The notes beneath the pieces are model-generated. The model was not told where the DNA came from. It was given only the letters and a program-made list of their open reading frames with translations, and made no database searches. Positions 1-4,213 of a DNA stretch of 4,213 bases are shown here, piece by piece. Position numbers and translations under genes: made by a program. Origin of the DNA: a virus (taxonomy: Duplodnaviria; Heunggongvirae; Uroviricota; Caudoviricetes); IMG/VR virus record IMGVR_UViG_2706794687_000006; one strand, given 5' to 3'. The stretch's first letter is position 1; the number at the start of each line of letters is the position of its first letter.

Positions 1-60
1 CGTCTGGGGAATATCTCCCCGGCAGCCTTCAGGGAAAAATATCATCAGATGGCTGCTTAA
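1..60 (+). CDS. 3' end of an upstream gene (partial; 19 codons then TAA at 58-60), probably the structural gene preceding the sheath gene
   Basis: Frame 1 is open from position 1 to the TAA at 58-60 (RLGNISPAAFREKYHQMAA*), co-oriented with the downstream tail genes. Too short to assign a product. Confidence 0.3.
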   Translation, partial: RLGNISPAAFREKYHQMAA

Positions 61-102
61 AAAAAGAACAAATGGTAGTGTCCGCTATTGCCAGTACACC
101 TC

Positions 103-112
103 AAGGATAAGG
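103..112 (+). promoter_or_regulatory. Shine-Dalgarno region for the sheath gene (AAGGA at 103-107, AAGG at 109-112)
   Basis: Purine-rich AAGGATAAGG lies about 10 nt upstream of the ATG at 123. Confidence 0.4.
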
Positions 113-122
113 CTAAAAAATC

Positions 123-1619
123 ATGACGATAAGTTTTAATACTGTTCCGTCGAATACGCTGGTGCCGTTGTTCTACGCCGAGATGAACAATTCTGCGGCA
201 AATACAGCGGTGACCAGCGCGCCTGCATTACTGATCGGGCATGCCAGCAACGATGCAGCCATTGAGGTTAACAGCCTGGTGCTGATGCCATCGGCAGATT
301 ATGCCCGCCAGATTTGTGGGGCGGGGAGCCAGCTGGCGCGTATGGTGGAAGTCTACCGTCAGACAGATCCTTTCGGTGAACTGTATGTTATTGCAGTACC
401 GGAAGCCAGAGGGGCGGCGGCGACGGTCAGGGTGACGGTTGCCGGAGAAGCAGAGGAAAGCGGCACCCTGAGTCTGTATGTCGGGCGCTCCCGTGTACAG
501 GTGCCTGTGGTGAATGGCGATGATGCCACTGCGGTTGCCACCGCGATTAAGGAAGCGGTAAACGGGGTTATCACCCTGCCGTTTACGGCGTCATCTGATG
601 CAGGTGTGGTGACGCTGACTGCCCGTCATAAGGGGCTGTATGGTAATGAGTTACCGGTCTGTCTGAATTATTATGGTTCTGGTGGTGGTGAGATTCTGCC
701 AGCAGGGCTTCGGGTGGTGACGGAAGTCGGTGCTGCCGGTAGCGGAGCGCCTGATCTTACCGCCGCTGTTGCTGCTATGGGCGATGAGGCATTCGACTTT
801 ATCGGTCTGCCGTTCAACGATGCCGCCTCCATCAATATGATGATGACCGAAATGAATGACAGCAGCGGTCGCTGGAGTTATGCGCGCCAGTTATACGGGC
901 ATGGCTATACCGCAAAACTGGGAACGCTGTCAGAGCTGGTTGGTGCCGGAGATATGCATAATCAGCAACATATCACGCTTGCCGGTTACGAAAAAGAAAC
1001 CCAGTCGCCTGTCGATGAACTGGTTGCCAGTCGCCTTGCCCGTGAAGCGGTATTTATCCGGAATGATCCTGCCCGTCCGACACAGACGGGGGAGCTGGTG
1101 GGGATGCTTCCGGCACCGAAAGGTAAGCGATTCATCATGACAGAGCAGCAGACCCTTTTATCTCACGGCGTGGCGACGGCTTATGTGGAAGGCGGCACGT
1201 TGCAGATCCAGCGTTCCGTAACCACCTACAAAAAGAATGCGTATGGCGTGGCAGACAACAGCTATCTGGACAGTGAAACTCTGCATACCAGTGCATATGT
1301 TCTTCGCAAACTGAAATCGGTCATCACAAGCAAGTACGGACGTCACAAGCTGGCAAATGATGGTACCCGTTTTGGTCCGGGGCAGGCGATTGTCACTCCT
1401 GCCGTTATCAAAGGGGAACTTCTGGCGACATATCGTCAGATGGAGCGTGCCGGTATTGTGGAAAATTACGATCTGTTTAAACAGTATCTGATAGTTGAGC
1501 GTGATGCAGATAACCCGAACCGACTGAATACGCTGTTCCCGCCGGATTATGTTAATCAGTTACGTGTCTTTGCGGTGGTTAACCAGTTCCGTCTTCAGTA
1601 TTCAGAGGAGTCAGCATAA
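123..1619 (+). CDS. Phage contractile tail sheath protein (Mu gpL-like family), 498 aa
   Basis: Long uninterrupted ORF with ATG start and upstream SD. Its size (~500 aa) and position directly upstream of a 118-aa tube gene, chaperone and TMP follow the sheath-tube-chaperone-TMP order of myovirus tail modules. The N-terminus (MTISFNTVPSNTLVPLFYAE...) resembles Mu-type sheath proteins as I recall them, but this is not verified by search. Confidence 0.8.
   Translation: MTISFNTVPSNTLVPLFYAEMNNSAANTAVTSAPALLIGHASNDAAIEVNSLVLMPSADYARQICGAGSQLARMVEVYRQTDPFGELYVIAVPEARGAAATVRVTVAGEAEESGTLSLYVGRSRVQVPVVNGDDATAVATAIKEAVNGVITLPFTASSDAGVVTLTARHKGLYGNELPVCLNYYGSGGGEILPAGLRVVTEVGAAGSGAPDLTAAVAAMGDEAFDFIGLPFNDAASINMMMTEMNDSSGRWSYARQLYGHGYTAKLGTLSELVGAGDMHNQQHITLAGYEKETQSPVDELVASRLAREAVFIRNDPARPTQTGELVGMLPAPKGKRFIMTEQQTLLSHGVATAYVEGGTLQIQRSVTTYKKNAYGVADNSYLDSETLHTSAYVLRKLKSVITSKYGRHKLANDGTRFGPGQAIVTPAVIKGELLATYRQMERAGIVENYDLFKQYLIVERDADNPNRLNTLFPPDYVNQLRVFAVVNQFRLQYSEESA
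1605..1610 (+). promoter_or_regulatory. Shine-Dalgarno (GAGGAG) for the tube gene, inside the 3' end of the sheath gene
   Basis: GAGGAG at 1605-1610 sits 8 nt before the ATG at 1619. The sheath stop TAA (1617-1619) overlaps that ATG as TAATG, indicating translational coupling. Confidence 0.5.
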
Positions 1620-1975
1620 TGGCAAAGATCGCCGGAACCTGTTTTTTTAAAGTGGATGGTCAGCAGTTATCGCTGACAGGTGGCATTGAAGTGCCGATGA
1701 ACACCAATGTCCGGGATGACATCGTCGGCATGGCAGGGGATGTGGATTACAAGGAGACCTGGCGGTCACCTTACGTTAAGGGCACGTTTAAAGTGCCCAA
1801 AAACTTTCCGGTCGACAAAATTACCACCTCAGACCAGATGACGATTACCGCTGAGCTGGCAAACGGCATGGTGTATGTGCTTTCGGCGGCATGGCTGCAC
1901 GGAGAGGCTAATCATAATGCCGAAGAAGGCACGGCAGATCTTGAATTCCACGGCGAAGAGGGAGGGTATCAGTAA
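1619..1975 (+). CDS. Phage tail tube protein (Mu gpM-like), 118 aa
   Basis: 118-aa ORF immediately after the sheath gene with a TAATG overlap. Size and position are typical of the tube protein in contractile tail modules; the family assignment is from recall only. Confidence 0.75.
   Translation: MAKIAGTCFFKVDGQQLSLTGGIEVPMNTNVRDDIVGMAGDVDYKETWRSPYVKGTFKVPKNFPVDKITTSDQMTITAELANGMVYVLSAAWLHGEANHNAEEGTADLEFHGEEGGYQ
1961..1965 (+). promoter_or_regulatory. Shine-Dalgarno (GGAGG) for the chaperone gene
   Basis: GGAGG at 1961-1965 lies 9 nt upstream of the ATG at 1975. The tube stop TAA (1973-1975) overlaps that ATG as TAATG. Confidence 0.5.
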
Positions 1976-2064
1976 TGGCAATGAACGTTACAGAAATAGT
2001 TTTAAAAAAACCGGTGACAGCGCATAACGAAATGCTGCATGTGCTGGAGTTGCGCGAGCCCACG
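1975..2064 (+). CDS. Tail assembly chaperone (P2 gpE / Mu gp41-like), 5' portion only; the remainder is hidden in the N-run
   Basis: ATG at 1975 is coupled to the tube stop. The N-terminus MAMNVTEIVLKKPVTAHNEMLHVLELREPT resembles the conserved N-terminal region of tail assembly chaperones, which sit between tube and TMP genes. The ORF runs into the N-run at 2065. The ORF-track continuation after the gap (RVPEPQYWGRW...) is in the wrong frame and is not part of this protein. Confidence 0.55.
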
Positions 2065-2115
2065 NNNNNNNNNNNNNNNNNNNNNNNNNNNNNNNNNNNN
2101 NNNNNNNNNNNNNNN
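2065..2115. other. Run of 51 N (masked or unsequenced gap)
   Basis: Directly visible in the sequence. Coding frame differs on the two sides (codon starts are 1 mod 3 before, 0 mod 3 after), so the run does not represent in-frame continuous sequence of its stated length. Confidence 0.95.
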
Positions 2116-3946
2116 CGGGTGCCGGAACCGCAGTACTGGGGGCGCTGGCGCTCCCGGTCAAATCTGCCATTGCCCTTGAATCAAAAATGGCGGATGTCCG
2201 GAAAGTGGTGGATGGTCTGGATACGCCGGAAGCGTTTAAGGCAATGACGGAGCAGGTGCGCGANNNNNNNNNNNNNNNNNNNNNNNNNNNNNNNNNNNNN
2301 NNNNNNNNNNNNNNNNNNNNNNNNNNNNNNNNNNNNNNNNNNNNNNNNNNNNNNNNNNNNNNNNNNNNNNNNNNNNNNNNNNNNNNNNNNNNNNNNNNNN
2401 NNNNNNNNNNNNNNNNNNNNNNNNNNNNNNNNNNNNNNNNNNNNNNNNNNNNNNNNNNNNNNNNNNNNNNNNNNNNNNNNNNNNNNNNNNNNNNNNNNNN
2501 NNNNNNNNNNNTACCGGTCCTGCAAGTGCGAAAAAGATTTCTGATGTTGTGACCCGTATTGGCCCTTTAGGCAGTGTTGCGGGTGTGGCCTCCGGAGAGA
2601 TTGCCGCAATGGGGGCAACCATTGCCGGAATGGGGGTGGAGTCAGAAATTGCTGCGACGGGGATAAAGAATTTTATGTTGTCGCTGACAGCGAGGGATTC
2701 TGCCACCAAATCGCAGAAAAAAGTGCTCCGCTCGTTGCGCATTAGCCCGAAAAAACTGGCGGCGGATATGCAGAAAGACGCCCGCGGGGCCATGCTGCAC
2801 GTACTGGATTCTCTGGCAAAAGTGCCGAAAGAAAAACAGGCTGCTGTGCTGAAAGCGCTGTTCGGGAAGGAATCCCTGGGGGCCATTGCGCCGCTGCTCA
2901 CGAATCTGGATTTGTTGCGAACCAACTTTAATCGTGTGGCGGATGCGCAGCAGTATGGCGGCTCAATGCAGAAAGAATATGCCGCCCGTGCCGCGACGAC
3001 AGAAAATCAGTTGTTGCTGCTGCAGAACCAGATCAATGCGATTTCTTCCACGCTGGGGGAAACCTTCCTGCCTTCACTCAATGAAGGCATAAAAGAGATG
3101 AAGCCTTTTCTGGAAGAAGTGCGCACGTTTGTCAGAGAAAATCCTGAGGTCGTAAAAACCATCGCGAAAACTGGTGCGGCATTACTGACGATGGGCGTGG
3201 CGATTGGCACATTGACACGCATAACAAAAATCATGGGTAGCGTGATGAATATGACGCCGGCAAAGGGATTAATTGCGCTTCTCGTCGGTGGTGCATATCT
3301 CATAATTGATAACTGGGAAACGGTCGGTCCGGTTGTGAAAAAAGTCTGGCAGGAGGTTGATCAGGTTGTCAGAGCAATGGGGGGATGGGAACAGGCAGTA
3401 AAAACAATAGCAACGGTTTCTGCCCTGTATATTGGTGTGAAGGCGGTGGCAAGTATTCGTGCGGCAACAGTCGCCCAGAATCAATGGACAACGGCGGCAG
3501 GAAAAACAGGGCTGAAATTAAAGGGCCTCGGAAAGATCAGTCTGATTGGTGGATTGCTTGAACTGGGCATGATGGCGCAGGAGTTTGAAAAAGCACATCC
3601 CTGGCTTGTTAAAAATTTTGTGGCTGATGCACTGAACAGTGGATTTGGTCTGAATGATAAGTTCGACGAGTGGGGCAAACAGTTCCATGATTTTGTCTAT
3701 GACATGACCGGATGGCAGATGCCACGTGGTGATGGGTATTTATCTCCCGATAAACGCTACACCCCGAATGTATCACTGGAAAGGAATCAGCTGTTAAGCC
3801 TTGCATCTTCACCGGCAACCCGCAGCGAACTTAAGGTGACGTTTGACAACGCGCCGCCTGGAATGCGCGTTATCGATTTGCCGAAAACAGGCGATCCCTT
3901 TATGAAAATCACCCATGATGTTGGGTATTCTCCATTTAAAAGGTGA
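2116..3946 (+). CDS. Phage tail tape measure protein (TMP); 5' end not visible, interrupted by the N-run 2264-2511, stop TGA at 3944-3946
   Basis: Segment 1 (2118-2263, codon starts 0 mod 3) translates to GAGTAVLGALALPVKSAIALESKMADVRKVVDGLDTPEAFKAMTEQVR, which resembles the conserved TMP core motif as I recall it. Segment 2 (2513-3946, codon starts 2 mod 3) is open from the gap edge: TGPASAKKISDVVTRIGPLGSV...LFGKESLGAIAPLL..., followed by several long hydrophobic stretches typical of TMPs. The ATG at 2187 and GTG at 2549 used by the ORF track are internal codons, not true starts. Confidence 0.8.
2264..2511. other. Run of 248 N inside the tape measure gene
   Basis: Directly visible. TMP coding frame shifts from 0 mod 3 before to 2 mod 3 after, so the stated length is not frame-consistent with the flanks. 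Confidence 0.95.
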
Positions 3947-4013
3947 GTTCTTTTTTTGTGGTGAAAGATGAGGCAAAATTATCGCGTAACATGCTAACAA
4001 TGGAGTTTGTTTT

Positions 4014-4145
4014 GTGATAAAGCCATTTTTAATGACGGTTGCAATATTAACCTCTTGCTGTGCTCAGGCGAAAATACTAACAAATGAGGAGATTGTTTCA
4101 CGATTTATTAGTAACGTTAAAACGGTGATGCTGCCAACTTACTGA
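4014..4145 (+). CDS. Candidate small exported protein or lipoprotein (43 aa) of unknown function; hypothetical
   Basis: GTG start at 4014 preceded by GGAG (4002-4005) with 8-nt spacing; stop TGA at 4143-4145. Translation: MIKPFLMTVAILTSCCAQAKILTNEEIVSRFISNVKTVMLPTY. It has a Lys-containing n-region, a hydrophobic core, a lipobox-like L-T-S-C (Cys15) and an alternative A-Q-A signal peptidase I motif. Short ORFs can be chance, and the region is AT-rich. Confidence 0.35.
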   Translation: MIKPFLMTVAILTSCCAQAKILTNEEIVSRFISNVKTVMLPTY

Positions 4146-4213
4146 TTTAGTGTATGATGGTGTTTTTGAGGTGCTCCAGTGGCTTCTGTTTCTATCAGCT
4201 GTCCCTCCTGTTC

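Follow-up and report, generated by a model that had tools for sequence, protein, structure and literature searches.

A probable accessory gene cassette, cut by IS1, directly after the tape measure gene of a phiP27-like prophage tail module

The AT-rich stretch that follows the tape measure protein (TMP) gene at the end of the window, by which is meant the whole 4,213-nucleotide piece of viral DNA analysed here, is in all probability the start of an accessory gene cassette in the tail operon that has been cut by IS1. Read in this way, the odd stretch is fully explained by two familiar processes, namely the acquisition of a moron by a tail operon and the insertion of IS1 in a Shigella lineage. 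The finding also draws attention to an uncharacterised family of exported prophage proteins, which is small and has members in E. coli, Shigella and Yersinia.

An earlier note had singled out this segment for an abrupt fall in GC content directly after the TMP gene, and its hand counts prove to be exact (36.0% for 4001-4100, 56.0% for 301-400). The GC content of the whole flagged segment (3947-4213) is 38.6%, compared with 52.1% for positions 1-3946, and the onset of the fall coincides with the TMP stop codon (TGA, 3944-3946). Within the segment the composition is uneven, with 34.5% GC in 3947-4123 versus 46.7% in 4124-4213. The first of these values confirms that the shift is real, being lower than that of any upstream window of the same 177-bp length: the N-free 177-bp windows of 1-3946 have a minimum of 40.7% (mean 52.1%, s.d. 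4.4%), and none of them has a GC content of 34.5% or less. The same division is evident in a megablast search with positions 3600-4213, which breaks these positions up into three stretches. The TMP end (3600-3937) has matches in phiP27 and in 24 complete E. coli genomes, the match extends to 4123 in only 11 of these genomes, and positions 4124-4213 yield thousands of matches annotated as IS1.

The gene upstream of the segment is indeed the tape measure gene, as the earlier note had it. Its readable 3' part (2116-3946, plus strand) shares 97.9% identity with the annotated tape measure gene of phiP27 over 3600-3937, the matching gene carries the TMP annotation in the 24 E. coli genomes, and it is preceded by tail sheath, tube and chaperone genes in the expected order. 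The true start of the TMP gene is hidden under a run of Ns at 2065-2115. The full-length protein, of 649 aa, can be read from an IMG/VR contig (IMGVR_UViG_2874968258_000001, here L018) that is 100% identical to the window over 2116-2263 and 2512-4213 and extends past the window end. The N runs of the window, at 2065-2115 (51 bases) and 2264-2511 (248 bases), do not preserve length, and comparison with L018 and with the prophage of E. coli FDAARGOS_944 (L001) gives 457 and 240 bases, respectively. The masked sequence comprises the end of the tail chaperone gene, the start of the TMP gene and part of the TMP gene itself, and the '465-aa GTG-start TMP' of the list of open reading frames is consequently an artefact of this masking. 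The L001 prophage, otherwise the closest one with an intact moron, is likely to be defective as well, because an ISEc60 (IS4-like) insertion at L001 1275-2569 splits its tail sheath gene.

The tail module is phiP27-like and of the Mu type, and in it the cassette fits exactly into the gap that separates the TMP gene from the DNA-circularization (Mu gp43/N-like) gene. In a direct comparison, the collinearity of L001 with phiP27 breaks off after L001 6337 (window position 3937) and is restored at L001 6940, which is 4 nt upstream of the ATG of the DNA-circularization gene, such that 21 bp of phiP27 are replaced by 602 bp in L001. These 602 bp constitute the whole cassette and have a GC content of 36.7%, with flanks of 52-55%. 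The window contains the 5' 186 bp (3938-4123, plus strand; 34.4% GC), a part that phiP27 is without. In phiP27 the TMP and DNA-circularization genes are separated by 15 nt, and a 15-nt gap is also found in E. coli ATCC 43886, A31 and ETEC1732 (L007-L009), which are the 3 of the 13 cassette-free genomes that were inspected at the junction. Of the 24 complete E. coli genomes in which this TMP 3' end occurs, 11 carry the cassette and 13 are without it, and carriers and non-carriers interleave when the genomes are ordered by the identity of their TMP gene to that of the window. The comparison of this junction among related prophages, which the earlier note had proposed, thus identifies the segment as an indel, absent from phiP27 and from more than half of these E. 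coli genomes. It is not an AT-rich spacer fixed in the module, given that only 11 of 24 genomes carry it, nor is it the start of a normal baseplate gene, since what it opens is a gene of the family phrog_5586.

Intact copies of the cassette have a simple layout, in which a 67-nt leader with the motif GGAG is followed by a 160-codon gene and a hairpin with a T-run that forms a terminator. In E. coli FDAARGOS_944 (L001) and AST215 (L002) the gene is annotated as a 483-bp 'hypothetical protein' gene between the TMP and DNA-circularization genes. The intrinsic terminator, GCCGCCAGAAATTGGCGGTTTTTTT, is located at L001 6903-6925, directly 3' of the stop codon of the gene, and so belongs to the part of the cassette beyond the window end. 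Upstream of the gene, a simple consensus scan, which weak or non-canonical promoters could escape, returned no sigma-70-type promoter site, compared with 2.7 sites expected in shuffled sequences. The sole promoter-like site of the window segment (4131-4158) falls within the IS1 inverted repeat.

The last 90 positions of the window (4124-4213, plus strand) are nucleotides 1-90 of IS1, with 100% identity to the IS1 copies in phages P1, SfIV and others, and the window ends inside the element. Alignment to the annotated IS1 of P1 places the left inverted repeat, GGTGATGCTGCCAACTTACTGAT, at 4124-4146 and the GTG start of insA (IS1 nucleotide 56) at 4179, both on the plus strand. The element is complete in L018 (2232-2999), where it measures 768 bp and contains insA and insB (ORFs at 2287-2562 and 2481-2984). 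Immediately before IS1, the window has the 9-bp sequence CGTTAAAAC (4115-4123, plus strand), which recurs right after the right end of IS1 in L018 and is present once only in intact alleles; it is the left copy of the target-site duplication. IS1 elements are 768 bp long and create target duplications of 8 or 9 bp (PMC12428005), and the copy in the window is ordinary in all its features, with only the insertion site in the moron gene being specific to this lineage. Beyond IS1, L018 continues with the remainder of the moron gene and then with an intact DNA-circularization gene of 463 aa. Further along, the baseplate hub ORF of L018 (4816-5898) has 360 aa compared with 351 aa in L001, and the alignment of L018 with L001 3' of IS1 contains a few gap positions; a small frameshift near the 3' end of this ORF may account for the difference.

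The point of insertion is after the second base of codon 37 of the moron gene. The result is a stub, MIKPF...NVKT-VMLPTY-stop, in which codons 1-37 are native (MIKPFLMTVAILTSCCAQAKILTNEEIVSRFISNVKT) and codons 38-43 (VMLPTY) and the stop codon are supplied by IS1, and the moron gene is dead in this window. An identical product of 43 aa has been annotated in Shigella sonnei 3226-85, and other protein fragments from S. sonnei either end in ...NVKT or begin with ESLPVKTSADN, the latter read out of the right end of IS1. Coming from independent assemblies, these fragments confirm both IS1 junctions. The same junction is found in a second IMG/VR contig (L040). In the complete E. coli genomes no match spans the junction, and an exact search for the junction in a one-genome-per-species collection gave no match, so that the lineage of the window is not the representative genome in that collection. 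The earlier remark that the segment contains no long ORF is literally true, the longest one there having 43 codons (4014-4145), and is misleading as a description of a native feature: the ORF is a truncated 160-codon gene, and appears short because IS1 cuts the gene and the window ends inside IS1.

The arrangement shows the beginning of an AT-rich moron of about 600 bp, which occupies the gap between the TMP and DNA-circularization genes of a phiP27-like tail module, and an IS1 copy that transposed into codon 37 of the moron gene, giving rise to the 9-bp duplication and the 43-codon stub. AT-rich targets are preferred by IS1 (PMC5009759), and we infer that the element landed in the cassette because of this preference.

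In the window, the moron gene begins with a GTG codon at 4014, which has a Shine-Dalgarno sequence, GGAG, 8 nt upstream of it (4002-4005, plus strand; read from the sequence), and appears in the list of open reading frames as 43 codons and a stop (4014-4145, plus strand). The N-terminus of the ORF, roughly codons 1-19 (4014-4070, plus strand), is a signal peptide. The intact gene encodes 160 aa (L001 6415-6897), and its product matches phrog_5586 from end to end (residues 1-160 versus profile positions 1-161, E 9.7e-89, PHROGs v4), of which the window encodes residues 1-37 only. Searches with the intact product found no family in Pfam, NCBIfam or PADLOC, the PDB sequence search was equally empty, and a literature search with the protein accessions and phrog_5586 found no paper. 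The nulls from PADLOC, Pfam and NCBIfam argue against membership of the intact product in the known anti-phage defence and superinfection-exclusion families, and do not speak against an exclusion function.

A signal peptide is found at the N-terminus of most full-length members of the family, and in the clade of the window it reads MIKPFLMTVAILTSCC-AQA, with cleavage before K. In this clade residues 12-15, LTSC, also fit the lipobox [LVI][ASTVI][GAS]C, as does LISC in the Yersinia homologue, the fit being in both cases a match to the pattern. The other clades of phrog_5586 have cleavage sites of the Ala-X-Ala type and no cysteine at the lipobox position. The protein of the window's clade is possibly anchored to lipid through its LTSC motif. 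Among family members Cys150 is invariant and Cys57 nearly so, a pattern that would suit a periplasmic disulfide. Homologues with as little as 24% identity retain the reading frame, the signal peptide and both cysteines, and dN/dS among close copies is 0.27-0.60, a figure that few substitutions underlie; the moron gene evolves as a protein-coding gene. The AF2 model of the intact protein consists of one helix followed by an eight-stranded beta-barrel, which is predicted with confidence (pLDDT 84.4, pTM 0.77) from an input of 12 diverse sequences; with 8 close sequences the pLDDT was only 41.

The family is small. Clustering at 90% identity gives 9 clusters among 5.8 billion proteins, and an exhaustive search returned 19 representatives at E <= 0.001. 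Three giant proteins (P0018, P0021 and P0025) were dropped as repetitive cadherin/Ig-like adhesins or domain-free proteins for which weak repeat matches had been summed. Named members come from Shigella flexneri, S. sonnei, E. coli, Escherichia sp. and Yersinia enterocolitica, and the family is present in about 112 of the 5,426 complete E. coli genomes. In the P0001 cluster, Shigella flexneri is represented by many N-terminal fragments (61, 92, 124, 133 and 151 aa) from contigs about 5 kb long; from these varying lengths, S. flexneri assemblies break inside or just after the gene at varying points, in contrast to the fixed IS1 junction of S. sonnei.

The slot between the TMP and DNA-circularization genes is shared by a number of divergent versions. 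A homologue with 50% protein identity (66% at the DNA level) occupies it in phage vB_EcoM-720R4 and 101 further complete E. coli genomes, a 74% homologue in a Yersinia prophage (L005), and homologues of 34-39% in two assemblies from sequencing runs. All of the versions in this slot are GC-poor relative to their flanks (34-40% GC), and all except that of L043 end in a hairpin and a T-run. Given that the stems differ between versions (L004/L010, L005 and L041), it is the structure of the terminator that is conserved. The L043 version has no terminator and is spaced 16-17 nt from both neighbours. Compared with L001, the TMP, DNA-circularization and hub proteins of L043 are 73, 68 and 77% identical and the moron protein 38%, and for L005 the DNA-circularization and hub proteins are 68 and 73% identical and the moron protein 74%, such that the divergence of the moron protein is decoupled from that of its flanks. 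Two sequence features of these loci may be recorded here. In the 50%-identity version, the TMP stop codon is immediately followed, in the leader, by a short and perfect inverted repeat, CTACTT-TAATC-AAGTAG (L004 4937-4960 and L010 2847-2870). In the Yersinia enterocolitica prophage (L005 4970-5010), the called start, MMLISCC..., is without a proper signal-peptide N-region, and an upstream ATGAAAAAACC... in another frame would provide one, which suggests a frameshift or a sequencing error at this position.

A distant member, P0020 (24% identity), is encoded on a plasmid-like contig with an IncFII repA gene (L042 2919-3413), where its neighbours are small ORFs on one side and a MazE/PemK toxin-antitoxin pair on the other. 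This gene has a normal GC content (54.7%) and its own terminator, and its location means that members of the family also occur outside phage tail modules. No family gene is found at the slot in phiP27, and the slot is empty in SfV, ST64B, F1055 and YeP1. In two other phages the slot holds unrelated genes: in Pantoea phage AH07 (L048 1961-2455) a gene for a protein of 164 aa that has a signal peptide and matches no protein family, and in Edwardsiella phage EPP-1 (L049 2060-2437) a gene for a 125-aa bacterial PH-domain (bPH_1) protein. Both genes have a GC content of about 40% amid 49-57% GC and each has its own terminator, which suggests that the junction is a recurrent cargo site in Mu-type tail modules.

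The properties that define a moron (sensu Juhala/Hendrix, as given in PMC3594210) can be recognised in this cassette. It is extra DNA at a precise intergenic site that only some of the closely related genomes carry, its composition deviates both in overall GC (34.5% versus 52.1%) and in the GC3 of the intact ORF (0.31 versus 0.51-0.59 in the eight neighbouring tail genes measured), and intact copies other than L043 carry their own terminator. Judged by presence and absence, composition and terminator, 3938-4123 appears to be part of a moron; the classical definition also asks for a promoter of its own and for independent expression from the repressed prophage, which would be putative here, given that the scan returned no sigma-70-type site. 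The horizontally acquired insertion, or moron, that the earlier note had suggested therefore stands for 3938-4123, with an indel, deviant GC and GC3, a gene of its own and a terminator behind it, and falls for 4124-4213, which is IS1.

It could be argued instead that the gene is no moron at all and is a regular, dispensable component of the Mu-type tail module, expressed only with the late operon and lost by those relatives that are without it. Homologues of 34-50% identity do hold the identical slot in divergent modules, and the constancy of the slot in tail modules whose proteins are only 50-70% identical could mean that the function is tied to the tail; the L043 version, with its tight spacing and no terminator, resembles an ordinary operon member, and the scan returned no promoter consensus upstream of the gene. 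However, the signal peptide is conserved in most full-length members, and an exported protein cannot join a tail that is assembled in the cytoplasm. The gene is also absent from the records of phages phiP27, SfV, ST64B, F1055 and YeP1, its GC3 (0.31) is well below the value of about 0.55 in the flanks, also where the gene is an old resident, the divergence of its product is unlinked to that of the flanks (38% versus 68-77% for L001/L043 and 74% versus 68-73% for L001/L005), and a homologue lies on the plasmid-like contig. Membership in the tail module proper is accordingly considered improbable.

Two further explanations concern the segment itself. The regulatory spacer between tail genes that the earlier note had offered as an alternative, a non-coding stretch such as a terminator, an attenuator or a small RNA, could draw on the 67-nt leader (3947-4013), which has no ORF, and on the shortness of the only ORF in the window segment. 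It has to be discarded almost entirely, as the ORF with its start at 4014 opens a conserved gene for a 160-aa protein, a gap of 15 nt suffices in phiP27 and closely related prophages, and the segment has no credible match in Rfam, the best hit (17.8 bits versus a gathering score of 100) being a sub-threshold chance match. Equally remote is the notion that the AT-rich DNA was delivered by IS1, as flanking DNA or as part of a composite transposon, or that the join arose as an assembly artefact where a contig ends. IS1 is able to mobilise neighbouring DNA, and the window ends within a repeat element, as is typical of contig breaks, but the whole cassette occurs without IS1 in 11 complete E. coli genomes, the junction is identical in independent assemblies, and the 9-bp direct duplication around a complete 768-bp IS1 points to a simple insertion into a pre-existing cassette. 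Both the delivery by IS1 and the artefact are ruled out by the target duplication and the IS1-free alleles.

For the cassette as a moron, the question arises of what its product might do for the lysogen. The signal peptide, the absence of the gene from sequenced phages with the same tail and the relative on a plasmid-like contig together point to a protein that would be exported to the periplasm and act as an accessory envelope protein of the lysogen, outside the virion. The single most likely role, proposed only tentatively by analogy with HK97 gp15, Cor and other tail-operon morons and exported prophage proteins (PMC3594210), would be to protect the lysogen at the cell envelope against superinfecting phages. 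A contribution to host fitness, ligand binding or virulence is possible and rather less probable, and a periplasmic role late in infection, such as preventing the re-adsorption of progeny to debris, is unlikely. Homology supports none of the exclusion, host-fitness or late periplasmic roles. In a bolder form, which we regard as doubtful, phrog_5586 would be an undescribed class of exported beta-barrels, encoded beside the TMP gene by temperate phages with Mu-type tails, that blocks envelope penetration or DNA entry by competitors, and the junction would be a dedicated hotspot for envelope cargo, because AH07 and EPP-1 carry unrelated AT-rich, terminator-bearing genes there. The family and the recurrent slot are, in any case, reasonable places in which to seek new envelope-level functions in phage exclusion or host fitness.

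Exported proteins that block superinfection include Cor of phi80 and N15, Sp of T4 and Ltp of TP-J34, and PliC, MliC and PhiA are periplasmic lysozyme inhibitors. With PliC and MliC, no detectable sequence similarity or specific structural similarity to the moron protein was found. The moron reported in the SfIV paper lies near Q and the lysis cassette and is not the element found here. The closest parallel drawn here is with the gene 15 moron of HK97 (Juhala et al. 2000; Cumby et al. 2012; reviewed in PMC3594210). Compared with that system, in which gene 15 lies between the tail chaperone gene and the TMP gene (PMC3594210), the present gene follows the TMP gene, and the proteins are without sequence similarity, HK97 gp15 being a small inner-membrane protein of the YebO family and the product here a predicted exported beta-barrel of 160 aa. 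For HK97 gp15, moreover, both the promoter and the exclusion phenotype are proven, and for the gene described here they would be putative. Despite these differences, both are small accessory genes that adjoin the TMP gene in a tail operon, and they share a deviant GC content, a terminator of their own, a patchy distribution in close relatives and a product directed, in the present case by prediction, to the envelope (PMC3594210). HK97 gp15 and Cor themselves illustrate that superinfection exclusion at the cell envelope can be accomplished by unrelated proteins (PMC3594210).
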